Origin: Chrysemys picta bellii
Lineage: Eukaryota
Reading direction: 5' to 3'
Length of the DNA stretch: 64,000 bases
NCBI RefSeq assembly: GCF_011386835.1
Contig: NC_088803.1
Coordinates: forward strand, 11,532,001-11,596,000
The notes beneath the pieces are model-generated. The model did not search any database. It was not told the origin of the DNA and was given only the letters and a program-made list of their open reading frames with translations. A program made the position numbers and the translations under genes. This document shows positions 2,601-63,811 of the stretch, piece by piece. The first letter of the stretch is position 1. Each line of letters starts with the position of its first letter.

Positions 2601-3413
2601 TGACCTTGCTTTCTCTCTCTCTAGTCCATTCTCTCTACTTATTCAATACAAAGTGGAACATCTTCCAAAGCAGAGATTGAAGGAGCTGTATAATAGCATA
2701 TCTCACAGTCTGGGGGCTAAGGCACTCAGCTGTGAGGTGGCTGATCCTTGCTGCTGCCAATAATGCAATGTACACGTCCTATTCATAACTTTAGCATTAA
2801 AATAAGTCCCAAAATGAAAAGTCATTTCAAAATGAAAGCTTCAAATGTGTCATTCTGATAAGATCTGAACAGAGTGTTTATCAAAATGCTTCATTTCATT
2901 TTTTTCCAAAGCAAAATTTCATGGAAATCAACATTTTCTCATGATTTCAATTAAACACCATTTTCCGGGGGGAAAGAACATTCCTTCCAAAAACTGTTGT
3001 CCAGCGCTAATTATTATTTGTAACTATCTTAGGATGATTCCCACCAAATTAGTTTAATTTAGCATCATCGGTTTTGTTTATTGTGGGAGTAGTGAACAAC
3101 GTACACATACAAGAGATTATTAACATTTCAATTTTGTTCTGTATTTAACAATAACACCTCTTGGAATGGATTCCATGCCCTGCACCCTTGTTGGGACACC
3201 TACCGTATCTTTGGAGGTCACCACCAAACTTTGGTGATTCAGCTGATCAAATTTAGGTTCCATCTTGATTCCCCTCAACCTGGCACCACCACCAAATGGA
3301 GTTAGCCAAATAGTCACTGAGAAGGGACTCAGGAGGTGACACTGCCGGGAACAAGCTGCTCTTTTGATGCCAGTTGCACAGAGCAGTTCAAACGGAGGGA
3401 GCTGGTACAATAA

Positions 3414-3730
3414 GCCACCCCTTTCCCATCCCCACCCACTGCTGCCCCTAGTGCCCATTATACAGTATAGCCTCCCCTTCCCCACCCCCACCCTCTGCTG
3501 CCCCTAGTGCCCATTATACAGTATAGCCGCCCCTTCCCCACACCCACCCTCTGCTGCCCCTAGTGCCCATTATACAGTATAACTACCCCATTCCCACCCC
3601 TCATCCGCTAGTGCCTATTATACAGCATAACAACCTTTTCCACATCCTTTCTCCTCTGCTGCCATCTGGTAGTCATTATATGGTCATTTTGTCATCAGTT
3701 GCCTTTTTGCCATCCAGTGGCTATTACAGT
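3414..3730. repeat. Minisatellite, ~56-bp period, about 6 units, CTCF-like core
   Basis: ctgctgcccctagtgcccattatacagtata at 3439, 3495, 3551; degenerate units near 3608, 3656, 3708. Confidence 0.9.
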
Positions 3731-3747
3731 GAATACATTAATATATT

Positions 3748-6242: not shown

Positions 6243-7202
6243 TCAGTTGGGAATTCTTGTAAAATCTGAACATTTACAGACAATTTTTCTCAGCGCCTCC
6301 TTCACCTTTTTGTTCCTCAGGCTGTATATGAAGGGATTGGTCATAGGGGTCAGGATTGTATAGAAGACAGAGAACACTTTGTTGAGGTCTCTGAGCGTGT
6401 TGGTTTTGGGCAGCAGATACACGATCATTAGTGTCCCATAGAACATTGTCACCACAATAAGGTGCGAGGAGCAGGTGGAAAATGTCTTCTGCCTCCCGGT
6501 GGTGGAAGGGATGGTCAGGATAGTGGAGATGATACAAACATAGGACACCACTGTTAATGCGAATGGAGGCAGGGTGAATAGAACAACCAGGATTGTAATG
6601 ACAAGCTCTATCAGGTAGGTGTCAGAACAGCAGAGATTGATTATTTGTGTGGATTCACAGAAGAAATGATCAATTTCATTGGGACCACAGAAATTTAGTT
6701 GTAACATAAGGCATGTTATGATGGCAATAGCCAGACATCCATTTATCCATGACCCAGCTGCTAGCTGGCGGCACAATCTGCCATTCATAAGCGTTGCATA
6801 GTGCAGAGGTTTGCATATTGCTAAATACCGATCGTAAGACATCATTGCTAGGAGGTAGCACTCAGTAGCTGCAAAGAAACTGGCAAAATAAAATTGCGCA
6901 ATACAGCCACTGACAGAAATGGTTCTGTCTCCAGTCAGGAGACTGGCCAGCATCCTGGGCAGGATGGCTGAGCTGTAGCAGGTCTCCAAGCAAGACAAGT
7001 TCCCCAGGAAGAAGTACATGGGGGTGTGAAGGTGCTGATCAGCCACAATTACCACCACAATGAGGATGTTCCCGGCAATGGTCACAATGTATATCATGAA
7101 AAACAGCAGGAAGAGAAGGATCTGCAGTTGTGGGATATTCCTGAACCATAGGAAGATGAACTGTGTGACAGCTGTTTCATTTTCCCGTTCTCTGTTTGCC
7201 AT
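6243..7202 (-). CDS. Olfactory receptor, class II, OR11-like; intact, 319 aa
   Basis: [41 protein letters not shown] motifs; GCCATGG Kozak; pyrimidine tract plus AG acceptor at 7213-7212. Confidence 0.96.
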   Translation of the reverse strand: MANRERENETAVTQFIFLWFRNIPQLQILLFLLFFMIYIVTIAGNILIVVVIVADQHLHTPMYFFLGNLSCLETCYSSAILPRMLASLLTGDRTISVSGCIAQFYFASFFAATECYLLAMMSYDRYLAICKPLHYATLMNGRLCRQLAAGSWINGCLAIAIITCLMLQLNFCGPNEIDHFFCESTQIINLCCSDTYLIELVITILVVLFTLPPFALTVVSYVCIISTILTIPSTTGRQKTFSTCSSHLIVVTMFYGTLMIVYLLPKTNTLRDLNKVFSVFYTILTPMTNPFIYSLRNKKVKEALRKIVCKCSDFTRIPN

Positions 7203-8011
7203 GGCATGTGTCTAGGAGGGAAAAAGAAGAAGAGAGAAATAGCTCTTGAATTTGATCAGGCAAAACATATTTAAATTTTACTCCATCCTATTGTGCCATA
7301 CAGGTGGGGACACTGAAGCTGAAGGTTCAATAACAGAGCTTGCATTTTGACTCAGCTTACAAAAAAAGTATTGATAGGCTTTTCTCAGCAGGTTTAACAA
7401 CCTGTCATCCTCTCTCAGCTCAGACAAGGGACTCATTATGATGGTCAAGGGTCTGAGTACTGGATGGCTATCTAGACTCACATACAGCTTTGGTTTGTGT
7501 AGCCTCATATTTCAGCTCCTGACATACTAAACCAGGACAAATTTTGTCCAAGTGTGGGAGACCATTTCTGAGAAGTGTTTGACACCACAAGTCTAGGCGT
7601 GGTGGTCAGATTAGGTGTGGCTATATCTAACTGTCCTTTCTGTTCTTCAGATCTATGAATCTAGCAGATCTATGAATCTATCTCTATGGTTATTTCACAT
7701 TATGACCAAGTTCTAAAATACAAAAATATCTGAGTGGACAATGTATTAGTATTATGACAATACTAATAATGGCTAAAAACACTTTTCATTGTGTGAGTCG
7801 GAGAAGCTGAAAGTGTGATTAAATTATGCACAGTCCACAGCTGAGAATCCACTCTCTAACATGAATATGTCATATATTCAGGCTGTGATTTTCACAGCAT
7901 ACTAAGCAAATTAGGTACCCAACAAGTTGTCCACCATAGTCCGAGTTGGGAATTTTTCAGTGAAATGTGTTGTTGAAACCAAAACTTCCCATCAAAATGT
8001 ATCAAATTCAA

Positions 8012-19208: not shown

Positions 19209-20216
19209 TCAACTCAGGTCATCTCGGTTTGTTTTCAACCTAAAAGAACTGGCTAGGGATGTCTGAGTTCTTGAGAAAGCCACACATTTATGGATCATTC
19301 TGCTCAGGGCCTCCTTGACCTCCTTGTTTCTCAGGCTGTAAATGAGGGGGTTGATCAGCGGGGTCAGGACAGAATAGAAGACAGAGAACACTTTGTTCAG
19401 GTCTCTCAACGTGTCAGATTTCGGTAGCATGTAGACAATAATGATAGTCCCATAGAACGTCGTCACCACGATGAGGTGCGAGGAGCAGGTGGAAAAGGCC
19501 TTTTGTCTGCCGCCGGTGGAAGGGATTCTCAGGATGGTGACGATGATATAAACATAAGACAACAGAGTTAACAGAAACGGGAAGAGTGTGCAAAGAGATG
19601 CCAGGAGCAAATCCAACACCAAGATCAGGTTGGTGTCACTGCAGGCCAGTTTTATTATTGGGGTGAAGTCACAGAAGAAATGGTCAATTTCATTGGGGCT
19701 GCAGAAGGTTAGCTGTGACATCAAGCATGATATGATGAGAGTGGCCAGACAGCCGCTTAGCCAAGATCCAGCTGCTAGCTGGAGGCAGAGCCGACCGTTC
19801 ATAAGGGCTGCGTAGTGCAGGGGTTTGCATATTGCTAAATACCGGTCATAAGACATCGCGGACAAGAGACAACATTCTGTAGCTGCCAGTGAAGCAAAAA
19901 AATAAAATTGTGCAATACACCTAGGGACAGAAATGGTCCTGTCCCTAGTCAAGAGACTGGCCAGCATCCTGGGCAGGATGGCTGAGCTGTAGCAGGTCTC
20001 CAAGCAGGACAAGTTCCCCAGGAAGAAGTACATGGGGGTGTGAAGGTGCTGATCAGCCACAAGTAGCACAACAATGAGGATGTTCCCAGCCATGGTCACA
20101 ACATAGATCACTAGGAACAAAGGGAAGAGAAGGATCTGTAGTTCAGGGACCTTCCCAAATCCCAGGAGGACAAATTCCGTGATGGACGTTTTATTTCTCC
20201 AGCCTGTGTCTGCCAT
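19209..20216 (-). CDS. Olfactory receptor, OR11-like; intact, 335 aa (start MADTGWRNKTS)
   Basis: All canonical OR motifs; close paralog of 6243-7202; likely ATG at 20216, downstream of a candidate acceptor near 20247. Confidence 0.96.
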   Translation of the reverse strand: MADTGWRNKTSITEFVLLGFGKVPELQILLFPLFLVIYVVTMAGNILIVVLLVADQHLHTPMYFFLGNLSCLETCYSSAILPRMLASLLTRDRTISVPRCIAQFYFFASLAATECCLLSAMSYDRYLAICKPLHYAALMNGRLCLQLAAGSWLSGCLATLIISCLMSQLTFCSPNEIDHFFCDFTPIIKLACSDTNLILVLDLLLASLCTLFPFLLTLLSYVYIIVTILRIPSTGGRQKAFSTCSSHLIVVTTFYGTIIIVYMLPKSDTLRDLNKVFSVFYSVLTPLINPLIYSLRNKEVKEALSRMIHKCVAFSRTQTSLASSFRLKTNRDDLS

Positions 20217-20322
20217 GGGGTGAACGTAGAGACAATTAAAAAAACCCTGTAGTATAATCACAAGAACAAAGTTAAAACAGGACTCAAGTGTTGGCAATTA
20301 ATCCTATAAATGTTCAAAAATT

Positions 20323-27326: not shown

Positions 27327-27577
27327 TACGAAAGTAATAGGCAGGGGCCCCAGTCATGAACCAGCAACCCCCATGGTGCTACGCGCTGTACAAACACAGA
27401 ACAATATGATGGCCTCTGCATCAGAGAGCTTCCAGTCTAAGCAATGAGTTGTGAGATTGGACCCATTTCCTGAGCTTACTTCCCCATCTGCATCCTGCAA
27501 ACCGAGTGGTTAAATCAACCACGGTGTCTATCACTTCACATTGCCTTTCATCAGACCACTGGTGTGCTTCCCCCCAT

Positions 27578-28952
27578 TTGTGACAGAACATAAAAGTATT
27601 GAAAAACACAGGGAAAATAATGAGGTGGCTGCAAAGCAAAGCTGCACATCCCTGGAGCTGGTATGTTTTGGGAAAAGCTAAAAAGGCCACAAAAAACCAG
27701 TTTGAACTGGTACAAAAAGCACCAGGAACAGAGAGCCCTAAACAAAAACACCCCCCCCCCAAAACCCCAAACTTAAAAATCCTCCTAAAAGCCAAAGGGC
27801 AGAACATCTTGGCATTTCATGTTTGCTCTGTCCAGTACTGTTGGTATTTCATGTTGAGGATTTTATAATTACAGGTGTGCCCCACCCTCAGTTGTAGCAT
27901 AGCTGAGAAATGGAGGGAGGTTTAGCATTCCTCTCTCCACCCCAGTAGGCGGGGAAATGGTGCAGGTGGGTCTACTCCTGGTCACAGAAGTGCCGCGTAA
28001 TAGGAGGTGGGCTTAAAGACCCTCACTCCACAGTATCCTCCATGCATACACCCTCAGCCATAGTATGACTGAGTAGAAGGGGAGAGCTTTGGGTTTCTTG
28101 CTCAGCCCAAAAGGGGCACTTAAACAGGAAAGCTTAGGGTTTCTTGCTCAGCCCAGGGGGGGGCATTTGGTGTATGGACCCTCGGTGGCAGGGAACCACC
28201 AAGTAAGACAGGGGGAAGCATAGTGCTCCTTCCTCTGGCCCAGTGGGGTAACATTGTAAGTCCCAGTGCCGGCGTGAGCTACGTAAAATCTCAAGTAATT
28301 AAAGTTCTTAAAAGTGGTACTAACAAATTGTAATAACATGTTCAAAAACCAAAAAAATACAGCTGCAGACTCGGGAATCCAGCAGTCAGAGGCAATGTCA
28401 TCAACAATGGGTTCAAGGCTGAACTCACGGGCATTAGAAAGAGTGGACATGGCAGTCTGACTGCCCAGCCTGCTGGTGTCACGGGAGGCTGGCGGACCTA
28501 ATGCCCGAGCCACGGGGGAAGCAGCAAATAGGGACAGAACACCAAAACCAAAAAGCCCTTAACAAAAACACCCCCCCAAAAATCCAAAAGTTAAAAACCC
28601 TCCCAAAAGCCAAAGCAAATAAAAAATTACAGCAAACCCCAAACAACCTGGGCCTAAAACAAAACTCCCATCCACCCTTCCCCCTCTTCTACTTATGTTA
28701 CACCCAAGCTTAGCCAGCCATAAATAAAACATATATAAATTTAAAAATAAATTAAAGCTTAGGGCACTTTCTTCCTTCCTCTAAATAACATAAAAAACAC
28801 CCAACACTCTCCGCTGTTATTTTATTATTTTATTAATAAAGCTTTAAAATTTAAACCCTTAGTGTATTTTGTCATCTCCTCCCCAAACAATCCTGTGGCC
28901 TCAGCCTCATCATCTAACTCCACAAGCAAACTGGCAACTAAAATCTGTCACA
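27578..28952 (+). mobile_element. LTR-like element with patchy G-to-A hypermutation
   Basis: TGTGACA...TGTCACA termini; AATAAA near 28835; G-depleted tracts; no TSD found. Confidence 0.65.
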
Positions 28953-29509
28953 AAAGAACCTACACCAATGCTAATCAGCAGAGATCACCCCAACTCCAAC
29001 AAGGCTCCTATTGGTGGTGAGTCCCTCAAAGCCCATACAGGGCTGCACCCTGTCATCACATGTTCCTCACAGCTTCAGCTCTGAACAGGCCCTCAGTCTT
29101 ATGGGGCCTCAGTGGGCTAAAGTCCTACCAATTCTTCCCTAAGGATTGGGTCCCCCTTGGAGCAGAGGTTCTGCCCAGGTGCTGGATCACGAAGATGGCC
29201 TAAACTCAGGCTGTTTAGTTAAAAGTCCTTTCTTGGTCTGGTGATCCCTGGAGTATCCAGTTTGAGCCAGCCTCTGTGGTAGCTCTCTGGAGGTGTTACA
29301 ACCTGAGCAAATTTGCATAATCACCTTTCTACCCCCCCCCCCCCACCATTGTTCTTAATTCCTGGAGGATCTGTGGTCATCCTCTCCCAAAGAATTACAT
29401 AGAGTCCCTCAATAGTACACACACATTTGCATTTTTAACACAGTGAACTGATAAAATACTTATACTTAATTCAAGAAGGTTTGTCCAGGATATTGTTATA
29501 TCCGTCACA
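28953..29509 (-). mobile_element. Second LTR-like segment; left boundary unresolved
   Basis: Reverse complement begins TGTGACGGATATAACAATATCC, an LTR-type start. Confidence 0.5.
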
Positions 29510-31370: not shown

Positions 31371-32663
31371 CAGATCCACCCCAACCCCCCAGTAGCAGGT
31401 GTACTGCTATAGAATTTTAAGTGTACTCGTACCCTCAGATACTACCATGATGGAGTCTATTTAAGTATTACTGTAGACTATCTAAGGAAATGTTTGCACT
31501 GTAATTCTTCAGAGTGATTTACAAATGTCACTTAAATCAATCTCACATTATTTGGGCTGTAAGACAAGTAAGTCAATGTTCTTATACTCATTTTTTTGGT
31601 AGCCAGCACTTCCAGTGAGGACCCTGGCTTTTGGGTATCTCAATTTCTGTATCACCAATTTGAGCCACCTTGGCTGGGATTTCAAAAGATCTTAGTCTTG
31701 AGATGACTTAGCTTATATGATCAAGTGACTTTCTCTGTGTGATAGAAAATAAAGTATCTCCAAATATTGCTCCAGTCTCCAAAATCTTTCTGAGCAAGTG
31801 GGCAAGCTGGTTCTTTGCTTTTATTTATCACAGAAAAGTGAAATCATTTGAACTGCTCCCCAGCTAACAGTGTGAATCAGCACAGTTAATAGAGTCAACG
31901 TGCCATCTCCTTACTTGGTGTAAATAGGTGTAGCTCCATTGAAGTCAACATGACCTAGTGTATATCAGCCATAGCTCCAATGGAGTCAGTGGTCAGATCC
32001 CCAGCTGGTATATAGTGACAAGGCTCCATTTATGTCAATGGAATGCCGGCTGATGATTTATTCCATTTTTTAAATTATGGTTTTAGTTCAGAAGTAAATT
32101 TTTCCTCTGTATTACACCAGCATAGCTGGGAAACCAATTTCGTTTTAAAGCAATGCGGGCTGGAAGCAAGAGACTATAGAATGTCCTATGTTCTAAAACT
32201 GAGTCTCTCTGTATCTCCAGTGATGAGATGTTTTTACCTATATTGGCCCATTGACTTCAGGGGAGTTTTGTGCAGATCACTTACTGGTTATAAAGTGATT
32301 CATAAAGGATTAAGTGTTAGAATCTGCCATATTCTCTCCCCAGATCCATGTCAATGGATTGCTGCAGTACAATGATTAGGTAAGAAATTGTCATGATGCG
32401 CTCAGTAGATATCGGCTCATAAATTAAGTGAGTTGAATTAAAAATTCGCAAAGTGTTTCAGAAAATAAAAATTGCTGAGCTCTATAAAGTAACTGCCCCT
32501 CCCTCTACCTCACCATTTGAACATTTCATCAACTGGTTGTGCAAAGGTTTTGCCTGTTGATTTAATTATTGATAGCCAGGAGCAGAAGTTTATAGGCTCT
32601 TTATGTATGTGTGTATTTGCGAAACATTGAGAATTATTCCTCTTTTGGTTTCCAAGAGCATCA

Positions 32664-33622
32664 ATGAGAAACCAAACTCAGGTGCCAGGGTTCATTCTGT
32701 TGGGGCTCACCAGTATCCCTGAGCTGAAACGACTCCTCTTCGGGGTGCTTTTCTTAGCCTACACATTGACCTTAATGGGGAATGTCCTCCTCATCATCAT
32801 CACCTGCACTGACTACCGCCTCCACAGCCCTATGTACTTCTTCCTCCAGAACTTGTCCTTCTTAGAGATCTGCTTAACCACAGTCGTCGTCCCCAGGATG
32901 CTGACAGATCTTAGGACAGAGAGGAGAACAATATCCTTTGCCGCTTGCCTCTCACAGTATTTTTTCCACTTCTTCTTTGGGGGTACGGAATTTTTCCTGT
33001 TGACAGCCATGTCGTTTGACCGCTAGGTGGCGATATGCTGCCCGCTCCGGTATACGTCCATCATGAGCCAAAGGCTGTGCTTCCTGCTGGTTATTTTCTC
33101 CTGGGTGGGAGGTCTTCTCCTCATCCTTACACCTATTGTCCTGACCAGCCAGCTCTCGTTCTGCAAATCCAACGTAATCAACCACTTCTTCTGCGACTAT
33201 ACCCCTCTGCTGTAGATCTCCTGTGGGGACAAGCATCTCCTGGAGCTTATCCATTTCCTGCTGGCTTTCTTCACCCTGCTCAGCACCTTATTGCTAATAT
33301 TAGTGTCCTACACCTACATCCTCATCACCATCATGCAGATCCCCTCTGCCAAGGGGCTTTCTCCACCTGCTCCTCCCACCTCATTGTCATCTCCATCTGC
33401 TATGGCAGCTGCATTCTCATGTATGTCAGGCCCATTCAGGAAGAAGACCTGGACCTCAACAAAGGCCTCGCCATCATCAACACCGTGCTTGCCCCCTTGC
33501 TGAACCCTTTTATTTACACACTACGGAACCAGCAAGTGCAGGAAGCACTGAGAGAAGTGGCAAGAAAGTTGTTTTATCCCAAGGACATGAGAGTCTCTAT
33601 GCAGTGCAGAAATAACAATTAA
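32664..33622 (+). pseudogene. Olfactory receptor pseudogene, OR6-like
   Basis: TAG replaces Tyr of DRY (33024-33026); second TAG (33213-33215); ~10-bp frameshifting deletion near 33355 before AFSTCSSHL; acceptor AG at 32655-32656. Confidence 0.95.
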
Positions 33623-45822: not shown

Positions 45823-47655
45823 AAAATGTTCATTGGGAAGGTTTTTATGGTTCAGAGTTCTCTGTCCCTTCAGAGAGGGACCCAAATTGATACACTCAGG
45901 TTTTCATACTGAAAATGGACATTCTGACACAATTCTGTTTCCTGAAAACATTTGAATGTTTTAATTTTCAGCCCAATGCAGAGAGAAAATAAAAGTTGAA
46001 CCCTCAAAAGTTGCTGTGAAATGAAATTCTCATCTTCCGGTCCACTCTAATGGCTGGCATGACATTCTCCATTGGAATCCCTGAATTTTTAGAATTCCCT
46101 TCCTCCCCTGGTTCATAACAGTCCCAGTTTGTCAGACTTCTAGTCATATGGCACTGTTCACCTTTTGTCTCTTGCCCAAAGAAAAATGAGTGTTGGATTG
46201 GGCTGGGTAGCAGTATTGTAAGACTATGGTGAGGAGTTCTCTCGATTAACTCTTGTTATGTTTATGCTGTTGCTGGGTTGATTGAATTGATCTGGGAGAC
46301 CTGTTCAGTCTCTGTGTTTATTAGCAGTGCTGGCCTTTATATTTATAAATTGGGATTTTCAACAGAAAATCAAATTTTTGATGAATCAATGATTTTCACA
46401 GAAAGTGTCAGTTTCCCTCAAACTTTTTCAATTTTTCCTCAGAAAACCCCAAAATTTCAGCCAAAAACTGGAAAAATTGGGGTTTTCAGATGAAAGGATT
46501 TTTGTTTTGTTTTTTATTTTTGGAAGTTTTCAACTGGAAATGTTTAGTTTTAAACTGTTTTGAGCTGAAAATGTGTGCACTACTAGTATTAGTAGTAGTA
46601 GTACATAATTCCACTAGAGATGGTTGAAAAATGGAATTTCCATTTCATGGGAAATTCCAACATTGCAAAATTTGTTTTCATTCTTAATTCGAATAAAAAG
46701 TCAAAATTTCCATAGAATGGGAAAGTTAAATGAAACATTTTTATTTCATTGAAATGAAAGCTTTCGACATGATTGAAACAAAATCAGAAAGTCAAAACCA
46801 TTCATTTAGACTTTTTACCAATGAAAAAATTGTTAAAATCAATACATTCCTGTGAAATGTTTTCATGCTGATGAAAATGTATCTTCCGATGGAGAGCTGC
46901 CCTATTGAAAAATTTTCAACCAACTTTAATTTTCACCATTTAGGACAAAAGCTAAGAAATAAAAGTGCATTTGTAATTTAATATTGTTTTCCTGCACAAA
47001 ACTGAAGTCAATTTATCAGAATTTGGAGTCTTTGAATTAAGATTGAGAGTTTATCTTAAAGTTCTTCCAGCTGACCTGCAACTTTTTCCTGTTGATGCAG
47101 GAATCATTGGATGAAATTCTCTGTCCTGTGTTATGATCCCCATGTTGTTTTCTAGCCTTAACGTCTATCATGATGTGAATTTTTGGTGACACTTTTATAA
47201 TGTTTTCCAACATTTCTAATTTACATAAAACATATGCGAATAAACATCAGGACTGTAGAAGAAATGAAAATAACAAAAAATAATTTCTTATTTTCATATT
47301 AGGATGGAATTTTTCAAAGAAGCATAAGAGAGTCAGGCACTTGAAATGCAATGGAAGTCAAGTGCCTAACTCCCTTAGCTCAGTAACTCCCTTAGGATAC
47401 TTTGAAAATCCCAGGTTTACTAGTTATTTTTATGGATCAGCTTTGTCTTCCTCAATCATGAGGATTTAAGAAGATGACATTACTCAGGCTGGTGAAACCT
47501 GTCTCCTTATGTCCTACCAATCAATACTGTAACCATAACACAGTGCCCAGTAACGAGCCCACAGGTTCATTGAATTTAATGGGAACTTGAGGCAATGTTG
47601 ATTACTATCTTTGCACAGGTACAAGGCTAATGCTGAGGAGACCACAACCGAAAGG

Positions 47656-48591
47656 ATGCCAGGGAATCACACAGATGCCTTCAGATTCATTCTCCTAGGA
47701 TTCTCTGACCATCCCCAGCTGCACCTGCTATTCTTCTCCATGTTCCTCGCAACCTACATGATGACCCTCACTGGGAACCTTCTCATCTTAACCATCACCA
47801 TGGCAGATGCTGCTCTTCACACCCCCATGTATTTTTTTCTCAAGGTCCTGTCCATCCTGGAGATCTGCTACACCTCAGTCACAGTCCCCAAGATGTTGGT
47901 GAACCTCCTGTCCGGGGATAAAAGCATCTCCTTCCTTGGCTGTGCCACACAGATGTATTTCTTTGTGGCCTTAGGGGGTGTGGAATGCTTTCTGCTGGCT
48001 GCCATGGCTTATGACCGATACGTGGCCATATGCCACCCTCTGCATTATCCGAGCATCATGAACCACACAAAGTGCATGGGGCTGGCCTCTGGCTCATGGC
48101 TCAGTGGTCTGGTTGGATCACTGGGCCACGTTATAATCATATTCAACTTGCATTTCTGTGTTTCCCATGAAATCAACCACTTCTTCTGTGACATCACCCC
48201 AGTGCTGAAGCTGGCCTGTGGCGTCACCTTCCTGAATAAAGTGGTTATCTTCACCATTCTCCTGATTTTCATCCCCTTGCCCTTCATTCTCATCCTGGTC
48301 TCCTACCTACTCATCATCTTCACCATCCTGAAGATACCGTCAGTTCAGGGCAGGGATAAAGCTTTCTCCACCTGTTCCTCCCATCTCATTGTGGTGACTC
48401 TCTTCTACGGGACAGGAATCATTAACTATCTGCACCCTAGTTCTACTTCTGTGTCAGGGATGGGGAAAATACTTTCTCTTTCCTACTCTGTCATCACTCC
48501 CATGTTGAACCCCATTACATACAGCCTGAGGAACAAGGAAGTGAGAGATGCTCTGAAGAGAACAATCATCAGGAAATGTTTTCTTAACTAA
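47656..48591 (+). CDS. Olfactory receptor, OR10-like; intact, 311 aa (start MPGNHT)
   Basis: [38 protein letters not shown]; acceptor AG at 47617-47618. Confidence 0.96.
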   Translation: MPGNHTDAFRFILLGFSDHPQLHLLFFSMFLATYMMTLTGNLLILTITMADAALHTPMYFFLKVLSILEICYTSVTVPKMLVNLLSGDKSISFLGCATQMYFFVALGGVECFLLAAMAYDRYVAICHPLHYPSIMNHTKCMGLASGSWLSGLVGSLGHVIIIFNLHFCVSHEINHFFCDITPVLKLACGVTFLNKVVIFTILLIFIPLPFILILVSYLLIIFTILKIPSVQGRDKAFSTCSSHLIVVTLFYGTGIINYLHPSSTSVSGMGKILSLSYSVITPMLNPITYSLRNKEVRDALKRTIIRKCFLN

Positions 48592-56540: not shown

Positions 56541-57815
56541 TACTGTATTTTGGGGAACCCAAGCAAATGTTAGTTATGGGTAACACTTTCAAAAGCACCT
56601 GATGTAATTAAGCACCCATTTCCCATTGATTTTCAATGAATACCAGTGTTTCAATGATTTACAAACCAGTCAATTTCAGGAAGACTGTCATTATGTAGAT
56701 GCCGTTCCATCATCTATGTCTGAATGTCACACACTGTTATAGGGTCGCTGATTCAGGACAATCTTCATTCACTAGTAAAAAGTAAAGGTAGTTATATTCT
56801 TTTTTTTCTTTCTTTCTTATAATAATAAAAAAGGCACTCATCCACATGACCCTGGATCTCCTTGACATAAGTGGCTAGCAAATGCAATTTCTGATCTTTC
56901 CCCATGCTGAAGCTAGGAGGGACAATAGTCGGAGGAGGATGAAAGTGACATGCAGGGACCCATATTGTGCAGAAACTAGGGATGGAACTGACAAATGGAC
57001 CTGATTCCTGTGCTGAAGCCAGGAGGTGGGGGAATTAACAATAGTAACTGTCTGCCTTTATATCTACCTACTCTGACAGAGCATCTCACTATCTTTTACA
57101 ATATACATTTTTCTATAAAATCTAGATGCCTTACAAAGAAATAACTTCCACAGTTAGAAAATGAACTAATTTCATCCATACTCCCCAGCGGCAATTTAAC
57201 TAAGAGAAGAATGGTCTTTCCTCTTCAGACAATTGCTATTGAACAAGGTAAGGTAAGAACTGATCCAAGTAATTTATCAGGCACATTTTGTCTCTTTTTC
57301 TTCTAAAGCTGTATCTGTGAGCAGACCATGATTTCCTGGAGTGGCTTCATGATTTAAATGTGTTAAATGAATGTGTAAATGAATTATTTTATTTGGATGA
57401 ATCACTCTGATAGGGCCTGATTCCCATTTACACAATAGTTTAATAGATTCAGAGTTTAAGGCCATATGATCCCCTACAGTTTTTGCAGGTGCCAGTATGG
57501 ATGATGACTATAAGAAAGTTGACCACCATTTTCCATTATTGATAATAGAAGTGAAGGTAAACTGCCCTGAGTCAAGATGGCTTTGATGACCAAATGTGGC
57601 CCAGGAAGGGCCCCGGGGAAGATTCAGGTTGAGGGGAAGGGAGACAAGCAAGGAGATGGGGAAAGAAAGGGACAGGATGGAGCTCCCTTCTTGTATAAGT
57701 TATCTAAGCTGCTTTGCTGTTTTTCCCTACCTGTCACTACATTCAGAAATTTTTACTATATTGCCTTCTATCTTTCCTCAGGAATAAATACTGTCCTGAG
57801 GAACTGAGAGCCCAA

Positions 57816-58829
57816 ATGGCAGGAAGGAATCACACCGTTGTCACTCAGTTCATTCTCCTGGGTCTTTCTGACCTTCCAAAGATACAGGCTTTATTCTTCC
57901 TGGTGTTTCTAGCTACCTACGTGATCACTCTGACCAGAAATCTTCTCATATTCACCCTGACATTGGCTGATGCTGCCCTCCACACCCCCATGTATTTCTT
58001 CCTCATGAACCTGTCCTTCCTGGAGATCTGCTACACCTCGGTCACCCTGCCCAAGATGCTGGCCAACCTCCTCTCGGAGGATAAAACTATCTCCTTCACT
58101 GGCTGTGCTGTGCAGATGTATTTCTTTCTATTTCTAGGGGGCACAGAGTGTTTTCTTTTGGGGGCGATGGCTTATGACCGCTATGTTGCAATATGCTACC
58201 CCTTACGCTATACGCACATTATGAACCATACCAGATGCTCAGAGATGGCTGCTGTGTCATGGATCAGTGGTCTCCTCACGTCCTTGGGACACACCTCAGT
58301 AATATTTACCTTGCCTTTTTGTGGATCCAATGAAATTAACCATTTCTTCTGTGACATCCCCCCAGTATTGAAGCTGGCCTGTGGGGTCACTTACCTGAAT
58401 GAAATCGCCGTTTTTATGGTTGCCCTGCTATTCATAACATTTCCCTTTGTGTTGATTCTGGTCTCCTACCTTCTCATCCTCCTGACCATCCTGAAAATGC
58501 CTTCGGCTCAGAGTAGGCATAAGGCCTTCTCCACCTGTTCCTCACATCTTCTGGTGGTGACACTATTCTTCGGGACAGGAATTGTCACGTATCTGCGCCC
58601 CAATTCTGCATATGCACCAGTAACCAACAAGCTGCTCTCTCTCTTCTACACAGTCATCACCCCCATGTTCAACCCCCTTATCTACAGCCTGAGAAACAAG
58701 GAGGTGAAGGGGGCTCTCAGGAGAACAATGGCCAGAAATTGCTTTCTTAAAGGAAACAAATGTATCATAATTATGGGGCAAGGTCCTCGAAGATGGATAG
58801 GTTTGTGTTTACAACACCTGAGGGTCTGA
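57816..58829 (+). CDS. Olfactory receptor, OR10-like; open, 337 aa (start MAGRNHT); GN-to-RN change and extended C-terminus
   Basis: Canonical motifs otherwise intact; acceptor AG at 57780-57781. Confidence 0.93.
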   Translation: MAGRNHTVVTQFILLGLSDLPKIQALFFLVFLATYVITLTRNLLIFTLTLADAALHTPMYFFLMNLSFLEICYTSVTLPKMLANLLSEDKTISFTGCAVQMYFFLFLGGTECFLLGAMAYDRYVAICYPLRYTHIMNHTRCSEMAAVSWISGLLTSLGHTSVIFTLPFCGSNEINHFFCDIPPVLKLACGVTYLNEIAVFMVALLFITFPFVLILVSYLLILLTILKMPSAQSRHKAFSTCSSHLLVVTLFFGTGIVTYLRPNSAYAPVTNKLLSLFYTVITPMFNPLIYSLRNKEVKGALRRTMARNCFLKGNKCIIIMGQGPRRWIGLCLQHLRV

Positions 58830-62857: not shown

Positions 62858-63811
62858 ATGAGCTATACCAGTGAAATTGCACAGCGGAATCACAGCATGC
62901 TGACCCACTTCATTTTCTTCAGATTCTGGAGACATCCAGAGACCCGAGCAATATTTTGTATAGGTTTCTCCATTATCTATACCGTCGCCCTGACAGGAAA
63001 CATCCTCATCATCTTCATGACAGTACTGGACCCAGCCCTCCACACCCCCATGTATTTCTTCCTTCGGAACCTATCCTTCCTGTAGATCTGCTACACCTCA
63101 GTCACCGTCCCCAAGATACTGGTCAATTTAATCTCTGAGGAGAGAGTCATCTCCTTCACTGGATGCGCTGCCCAGATGTATTTCTTCCTTTCTCTTGGGA
63201 TGGCAGAATGCTACCTGCTGGCTGCCATGGCATATGACCGCTACAGAGCCATCTGCTCCCCTCTGCACTACGCCCTCCTTATGAACCATAGGGCCTGTGC
63301 CAAGATGGCCGCTGCCTGCTGGCTCTGTGGAATTCTGATGCCGCTGGGCAACGTGGCTTGGATCTTTTCCTTGCCCTACTGCGGCCCCAACGAGATCAAC
63401 CACTTCTTCTGTGATATCTACCCAGTGCTGAAGCTGGCCTGTGGGGACACGTTGAGGAATGAGGCCTCCATCCTAGCCCTCAGTGTTTTGATCAACCTGT
63501 CCTCCTTCTTGCTGGTTGTTGTGTCCTATGCTCAAATACTCTCCAGCATCCTGAAGACCCCATCAGCCAAGGGAAGACATAAGGCCTTCTCGACCTGCTC
63601 CTCTCACCTCACCATGGTCACCTTGTTCTACGGCTCAGCCTGTGCTATTTACCTGCGGCCGAAGTCCAACCACACAGTGGAGGTGGATATGTTGATCTCT
63701 CTTTTTTATTCTGTCCTCTCCCTAGTGCTGAACCCCATGATCTACAGTCTGAGGAACAAAGAGGTGAAGAGTGCCCTGAGCAGACTCAGGGGAAGAAGGA
63801 GGTTTTCATGA
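62858..63811 (+). pseudogene. OR10-like olfactory receptor with one premature stop (TAG at 63083-63085)
   Basis: Both halves share one frame; paralog 57816 has GAG here (LSFLEICY); acceptor CAG directly before ATG. Confidence 0.9.

Follow-up and report, generated by a model that had tools for sequence, protein, structure and literature searches.

A deleted endogenous retrovirus in the genome of Chrysemys picta bellii with strand-specific G-to-A hypermutation, the probable footprint of an APOBEC1-like deaminase

The window, meaning the whole 64,000-nucleotide stretch of contig NC_088803.1 of Chrysemys picta bellii that was analysed, is an olfactory-receptor gene cluster with four full-length and two partial frames. 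A provirus sits between the receptor genes, consisting of two long terminal repeat (LTR) pieces that flank a leader. By position, the features are:

6243-7211, minus strand: olfactory-receptor frame
19209-20297, minus strand: olfactory-receptor frame
27592-27800, plus strand: middle piece of the 5' LTR (LTR positions ~357-560 of ~890), moderately edited; left boundary uncertain, 27575-27600
27801-27807, plus strand: deletion junction 1, with the remainder of the 5' LTR and the primer-binding site lost
27808-28540, plus strand: leader and start of the internal region, with light editing; in fuller copies this part begins ~60 nt past the 5' LTR
28525-28545, plus strand: deletion junction 2, joining the leader to the 3' LTR across a short stretch of imperfect homology
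28536-28952, plus strand: second half of the 3' LTR, last ~417 nt (LTR ~455 to end), ultra-edited
~32630-33620: olfactory-receptor frame
47602-48591, plus strand: olfactory-receptor frame
57708-58829, plus strand: olfactory-receptor frame
63086-63811, plus strand: olfactory-receptor frame

The element is what remains of a provirus that has lost its 5' end and undergone two internal deletions. A sequence-only reading had described 27578-28952 as an LTR; such a solo or single-LTR interpretation was rejected, given the two LTR pieces around the leader and the lack of a target-site duplication around the element (CATT versus AAAG). The 5' piece lacks the initial ~350 nt of the LTR, and TGTGACAG at 27579 does not match the family LTR start. 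Contigs from runs X3, X4, X6 and X15 read across junction 2, at which the polypurine tract was lost together with most of the internal sequence and the initial half of the 3' LTR. Since both priming sites are missing, the two deletions likely arose during or after the insertion of this copy. The 3' piece carries AATAAA near 28835 and terminates in CTGTCACA. The two LTR pieces share an overlap of 98 nt with 5 versus 1 G/A differences and 12 transversions, which is too short to prove their common origin in one provirus.

Comparison of the 3' part with the genome covered 594 first-look candidates, of which 40 were scored. LTRs of the family measure ~870-920 nt, start with TGT(C/T)ACA, end in CTGTCACA and commonly have 4-bp target-site duplications; a complete copy, locus L093, has both LTRs, a 4-bp duplication (CATG) and a purine tract. 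The pol pieces of family copies run in the plus sense of the window, thereby fixing the sense strand. A related Pol in the genome, 73% identical to one family pol piece, consists of reverse transcriptase, tether, RNase H and integrase, and among PDB matches MLV reverse transcriptase ranks first, followed by foamy virus reverse transcriptase, both above Ty3. The Gag of the related element gives weak coiled-coil-type matches and no zinc-finger match. By these domain comparisons, the family is a retrovirus-type element (endogenous retrovirus, ERV) rather than Gypsy; a Gypsy assignment, prompted by the LTR ends, is not favoured given the second RNase H and the PDB ranking. The idea of a Lokiretrovirus was also set aside, the open reading frame at the env position having no Pfam or PDB match, to a fusion protein or otherwise. 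The family's primer-binding site may be that of tRNA-Ala; the corresponding motif has three genomic matches, with no tRNA gene at any of them by ARAGORN. The domain order of the related Pol resembles that described for the Ovex1/SnRV-like and ERV4 non-class-I/II retroviruses (PMC2717909, PMC4299795), while the 4-bp target-site duplication of the family differs from the 5 bp given there for ERV4 and ERV3. Two further copies (L138, L139) carry a different pol with 32-46% identity to the related Pol, so the LTR family is mosaic. Between L061 and L138/L139, the same LTR family is associated with two pol lineages that are ~40-50% alike. Pol is lacking in most copies, and the family is largely non-autonomous.

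The second half of the 3' LTR is extremely poor in G. Positions 28561-28860 contain 125 A, 83 C and 18 G, the latter followed by C (11), G (4) or T (3) and never by A, in agreement with the hand count of the sequence-only reading. GA dinucleotides are likewise missing throughout 28541-28952 and return just outside, as it had claimed. The GA at 28537 is separated from the following one at 28956 by 419 nt, the window's longest interval free of GA; both flanks of the element have ordinary GA counts (15 and 13 per 300 nt). When the bases of 28537-28952 were shuffled, a mean of 12.2 GA was obtained, and none of 20,000 shuffles had zero. Another stretch without GA, 332 nt long, lies at 3399-3731 and derives from a C-rich tandem repeat of ~56 nt in which editing is not apparent. 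The existence of this repeat means that a GA gap by itself is no proof, which instead comes from the family comparison. In an edit-neutral sample, the matching LTR part of 76 family copies has a median of 24 GA and 89 G, compared to 1 GA and 31 G in the window copy. In this part of the LTR the sister copies are rich in both G and GA, which settles the concern that the family consensus itself might be A-rich and GA-free.

Compared pairwise with 48 copies, the window copy shows 1992 G-to-A, 100 A-to-G, 423 C-to-T and 403 T-to-C differences, a tally of non-independent pairs from which 12 duplicate or self loci are excluded. Sites were further scored where two natural G-rich copies, the witnesses, agree. 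With three witness pairs, the 3' piece has G-to-A at 53/80, 52/83 and 50/77 sites, with 4-5 C-to-T changes; A-to-G amounts to 0-1 versus 50-53 G-to-A, and A is the derived state. Outside CpG, two witness LTRs give G-to-A at 47/73 versus C-to-T at 3/95 sites (p=3e-19). The bias is therefore strand-specific, and CpG decay is not its cause, both as proposed from the sequence alone. Other changes number 12 in 339 sites. The mismatch spectrum that had been suggested as a check is dominated by G-to-A, with GA sites highest and the mismatches clustered in uninterrupted runs of 15, 12 and 16. Against a same-family copy, the window copy thus has the at least 10 clustered G-to-A mismatches that define an edited element in PMC4866542. 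Four other repeat or paralogue pairs within the window have no comparable asymmetry.

By context, the non-CpG sites of the 3' piece are edited at GA 16/17, GG 15/21, GT 8/13 and GC 3/15, forming the hierarchy GA>GG>GT>GC, whereas unedited copies retain G at 92-96% of such sites. The window copy is saturated, so that GG (71%) and GT (62%) are targeted too and the motif is not GA-specific there. The earlier equation of GA-to-AA changes with a TC target holds for the family as a whole and for a second ERV family, and falls short for the window copy, in which GG and GT are edited as well. GG sites whose following G is also A in the window copy are edited at 8/8, 10/10 and 10/10 with the three witness pairs, the remaining GG sites at 7/13, 5/11 and 7/10. 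This higher editing beside an edited G is in line with consecutive edits making new targets (PMC12548423). The 5' LTR piece is less affected (14/46 G-to-A; non-CpG GA 7/9, GG 1/13; difference from the 3' piece p=2e-4), with uninterrupted G-to-A runs of 10-12. The leader, with CpG included, has G-to-A at 31/196 versus C-to-T at 11/124 sites (p=0.09).

The stretch is found, whole or in part, in 19 of 24 listed runs, representing eight organisms. Eight runs were compared in detail, by contigs throughout rather than raw reads and with coverage gaps not counted; runs X20-X24 and those with a low share yielded nothing usable as evidence. Contigs of X3, X4, X6 and X15 cover 28536-28685 (X6 to 28834) with 0-6 differences each: X15 matches 28306-28685 and 28878-29300 with no differing letters, X3 covers 27917-28685 with 6 differences, and X6 covers 28306-28834 with 5. 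Inside the 3' piece, the differences listed for these contigs are A-to-C or indels; the A-to-G entries further to the right stem mostly from deep paralogue contigs. X11 spans both outer boundaries with a flank divergence of ~2%, and an orthologous-looking contig of X9 (record 31) has 18 differences over 28534-28901. No single contig piece covers the whole element. The A-rich allele is real and common to other organisms, as the same state recurs in independent contigs (contigs, not raw reads), which answers the earlier concern over an assembly artefact. Given the slow substitution rate of turtles and the 12 other changes in 339 sites of the 3' piece, the insertion may plausibly be some tens of millions of years old, a rough reading rather than a computed date.

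Editing extends well beyond the window. A purine-degenerate motif search gave 143 matches; 88 of the 100 listed were taken as an edit-neutral sample, which includes some segmental duplicates, and 85 of these LTRs had at least 150 witness sites. Six of the 85 are edited at p<0.001 and 11 at p<0.01, compared to none in the mirror C-to-T test. The edited LTRs pooled show GA 85/109, GG 30/115, GT 15/74 and GC 6/80, the unedited copies GA 74/924, GG 44/1160, GT 34/714 and GC 50/718 (4-8%). Among 119 LTRs compared, 25 are edited and the window copy is the heaviest. On a purine-masked tree (FastTree, short alignment), the edited state requires 24 changes versus 23.1 +/- 1.3 for shuffled labels, and the edited LTRs are divided between the chromosome strands (13 minus, 12 plus).

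Of the copies with internal sequence, 18/36 are edited and 0/36 respond in the mirror test. These comprise 8/20 copies found via the lightly edited leader and 10/16 found via an edited query, so that 18/36 gives no estimate of frequency. A second witness pair gives 12/29 edited internal regions, three near-duplicates and the witness copies being excluded. The edited internal regions overlap modestly above expectation, with many private edits both ways, while most non-GA edits of other copies fall within the set carried by the window copy. The choice of witnesses matters: edited witnesses (L102+L134, L136+L111) mask the signal of L093, which G-rich witnesses reveal. Editing is family-wide and was independently acquired by many copies. 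The sequence-only reading had treated one element; its claim of editing stands there and extends to many other copies and to two ERV families. Two copies are ultra-edited across the internal region, L146 (C25:2.50 Mb) at 81/86 and L140 (C2:61.37 Mb) at 66/80 GA sites. A link between heavy editing and deletions was dropped, the first LTR part being missing in 2/11 edited copies and, by eye, at a similar rate elsewhere.

A younger ERV family, with an LTR pair 99.8% alike and copies 95-100% alike, presents the motif more clearly. Among nine other elements, editing is clear in two (p<1e-10), weak in one (p=0.02) and absent from six. The three edited elements pooled give GA 175/495, GG 23/479, GC 5/348 and GT 1/282, and GGA accounts for 17 of the 23 edited GG sites. 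At the +2 position, GAA (74/169) and GAT (52/121) exceed GAG (29/114) and GAC (20/91), and the -1 position has no effect in the same pooled elements. This motif is a TC target and not the WRC of AID. Copies of this family at C8:5.21 Mb (L286, L289), C2:1.325 Mb (L287) and C2:268.60 Mb (L288) display clean GA-context hypermutation, with other differences at 1-2%. A third, older ERV family (19 loci, L290-L308) has no member edited at p<0.001, which may reflect family-specific escape or lack of exposure. With edited older and younger families beside an unedited third, the editor was active at two times and on some families only.

The distribution of edits along the copies bears on when they arose. 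In most edited copies, GA-site editing is low in the first kilobase past the 5' LTR and higher beyond (by kilobase, L134 6/36, 30/50 and 24/28; L093 5/34, 27/50 and 18/21), whereas L146 is saturated throughout. A rise away from the leader is predicted by the single-strand lifetime (PMC1635257). Seven two-LTR copies were compared, two duplicates and one short alignment having been dropped. The seven pairs have 92 A in the 3' LTR alone versus 33 in the 5' LTR alone (p=1e-7; polarised, 53 versus 23). The excess is significant in L093 (28 versus 6) and L099 (26 versus 4), not significant in L138 (16 versus 9), and near even in L134, L135, L146 and L102. In mouse Mtvs, G-to-A changes unique to the 3' LTR were put down to the minus strand being exposed twice, an effect that the authors call first shown there (PMC12548423). 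The extra G-to-A of the 3' LTR and the gradient are as expected for minus-strand cDNA deamination during reverse transcription.

The same copies (L093, L099, L134, L135, L138, L146, L102) show the opposite asymmetry for C-to-T, with 62 changes unique to the 5' versus 17 to the 3' LTRs (polarised, 44 versus 10), including 13 versus 1 in L134 and 10 versus 2 in L099. There is no TC enrichment in this excess (15/56 versus 174/858, p=0.24; L134 alone 8/14), and it is absent from a pooled comparison of 5' and 3' LTRs with witnesses. The internal regions of the 36 copies have no plus-strand C-to-T excess. Deamination of plus-strand strong-stop DNA is possibly the source. Plus-strand C-to-T in the 5' LTR has a precedent in HIV, although our literature search for such changes returned no paper. 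Some APOBEC1 enzymes are reported to cause plus-strand C-to-T via RNA editing (PMC5399452), from which a 5'-LTR-only excess cannot stem. We found no description of the reciprocal LTR asymmetry (3' G-to-A, 5' C-to-T) for endogenous proviruses.

Taken as a whole, we read the locus as a deleted ERV whose sense-strand G-to-A changes come from a TC-preferring deaminase, probably APOBEC1-like, acting before germ-line entry, with a probability of roughly 0.8. In the proposed mechanism, a TC-preferring cytidine deaminase would turn C into U on single-stranded minus-strand cDNA during reverse transcription, after which the copy would enter the germ line. On the sense strand, this would leave A where sister copies keep G. 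As has been suggested for mouse Mtvs, the minus strand of the 3' LTR would be exposed twice, and the GG edits would partly come from neighbouring edits creating new targets. That deamination acted on reverse-transcription intermediates is highly probable. Several observations count against the explanation as a whole: only 2/7 LTR pairs have a significant 3' excess; HIV work predicts a lightly edited LTR, while the LTR half in the window is the most edited part of the element; the motif of the window copy is not GA-specific; its two LTR pieces overlap too briefly to tie them to one provirus; the X9 contig has its 18 differences; and the third ERV family has no clearly edited member.

Searches with PF18769 and PF18778 identified eight APOBEC1-like catalytic exons in tandem at C1:136.73-136.89 Mb (the L148-L156 region, 136.73-136.90 Mb), one of them with a stop and seven with an intact HxE...SPCxxC motif, PF18769 being the best or near-best match of these seven. 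The evidence consists of catalytic exons rather than assembled whole genes; one exon is 90% identical to APOBEC-1 of the tortoise Chelonoidis. Among the APOBEC1-like paralogues, the loops that determine target choice vary. The cluster is adjoined by an exon that we read as AID. Elsewhere the genome has one exon each of APOBEC2-like and APOBEC4-like type, as well as a broken AID/APOBEC-like copy interrupted by four stops (C1:257.52 Mb, L158). Mouse APOBEC1 is reported to prefer TC (PMC7760323); this preference is common to several APOBEC3s and is thus not diagnostic of APOBEC1. By presence, expansion and TC preference, the APOBEC1-like enzymes would be the best candidates, and we consider it probable, though with less assurance than for the step of deamination, that the editor was an APOBEC1 paralogue rather than another deaminase.

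The same footprint and timing could come from a different deaminase, such as an APOBEC5/NAD-type or secreted-clade enzyme, APOBEC2 or APOBEC4, which we regard as unlikely. Reptiles are reported to have APOBEC5 (bioRxiv 2025.05.21.655229) and turtles expanded SNADs (PMC5889660), and our two family searches scored best candidates only. The opossum signature discussed with APOBEC5 is GY, however, the opposite of the turtle signature. The APOBEC1-like cluster is the only expanded one among the candidates scored, all other finds (AID, APOBEC2-like, APOBEC4-like and the broken copy) being single.

Under low dCTP, reverse transcriptase may put T opposite template G and thereby yield GA-context hypermutants without a deaminase. 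Such misincorporation also leads one to expect sense-strand G-to-A that is fixed at reverse transcription and biased towards GA, but errors of minus-strand synthesis pass into both LTRs and cannot produce GA-to-AA changes in the 3' LTR only, which outnumber those in the 5' LTR only by 20 to 0 in L093, 13 to 0 in L099 and 11 to 0 in L138. The rise of editing away from the leader is equally unexpected, and we consider this explanation very improbable. The odds for AID are slighter still: its exon adjoins the APOBEC1-like cluster and the saturated window copy is edited at 8/13 GT sites, yet WRC, which is GYW on the plus strand, is edited at 38/304 sites in 24 pooled LTRs versus 328/421 for GA, and GTA/GTT/GCA/GCT in the younger family at 5/393 versus 175/495. 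An A-rich subfamily, a multiplied edited master copy, post-insertion CpG decay or an assembly artefact has just as small a chance, for although many top BLAST matches are G-poor themselves and the nesting of non-GA edits noted above would suit a master copy, the edited copies are scattered on the purine-masked tree with private edits, the G-to-A excess remains with CpG sites excluded and tracks the element strand rather than the chromosome strand, the flanks and the four other pairs in the window are ordinary, and contigs of other organisms have the A-rich allele in common.

APOBEC-type editing of retroelements, the mechanism preferred here, is already known from mammals and birds and, in a preprint, from alligator and anole, and the turtle is a new lineage for it. 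The screen by Knisbacher and Levanon (PMC4866542) reports edited elements in 3/15 non-mammalian vertebrates, all birds, and lists 158,845 bp of LTR annotation (0.03%) for the painted turtle. The turtle copies resemble its edited mammalian and bird ERVs in their clustered sense-strand G-to-A changes, the C-to-T mirror control and the presence of ultra-edited copies; they differ in motif, which is GG in songbirds and GA in the turtle, with GAA/GAT on top. In alligator (22,417 sites) and anole (11,872 sites), LTR editing has been ascribed to APOBEC1, with up to six APOBEC1 copies in turtles (bioRxiv 10.64898/2025.12.03.692250, preprint), and L1 editing is known in lizards (PMC3880073). These cases, like ours, concern non-placental amniotes without APOBEC3 for which APOBEC1 is proposed; we found no turtle counts, motif, gradient or LTR asymmetry in the preprint, whose supplementary tables may hold a turtle row. 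A turtle report of APOBEC editing of ERVs was not found in a literature search that covered few subscription papers and left the preprint supplement outside its scope.

The account of mouse Mtv21 and Mtv17 with Apobec3 (PMC12548423) offers a further parallel in extreme G loss, consecutive edits creating targets and G-to-A unique to the 3' LTR. It involves a placental APOBEC3 acting on a betaretrovirus, in contrast to the reptile case with its additional 5'-LTR C-to-T excess. APOBEC3F-type hypermutation of HIV-1 (PMC1635257) is similar in its preference for TC over CC and in editing that tracks single-stranded time. The HIV LTR is described there as lightly edited, unlike the heavily edited turtle LTR, and APOBEC3, given as placental-specific in PMC4866542, is not expected in turtles. 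Tentatively, and at somewhat less than even odds, we postulate that turtles multiplied APOBEC1 beside AID into an APOBEC3-like antiviral array, a TC-specific member of which edited several ERV families from before related turtle species split until recently and acted on both nascent strands, as seen in the extra G-to-A of the 3' LTR and the extra C-to-T of the 5' LTR (44 versus 10).

With these in-vivo footprints, their defined motif and timing marks, turtles can be added to the map of APOBEC defence against retroviruses. Paired with seven candidate enzymes, the footprints make it testable, by matching the spectra of the paralogues, what took the role of APOBEC3 outside placental mammals. Editing distorts LTR-pair dating and ERV trees in turtles, and TC-specific turtle enzymes may serve as base-editor parts. 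The window copy itself represents an unusually heavy deaminase footprint, the tip of a genome-wide pattern.
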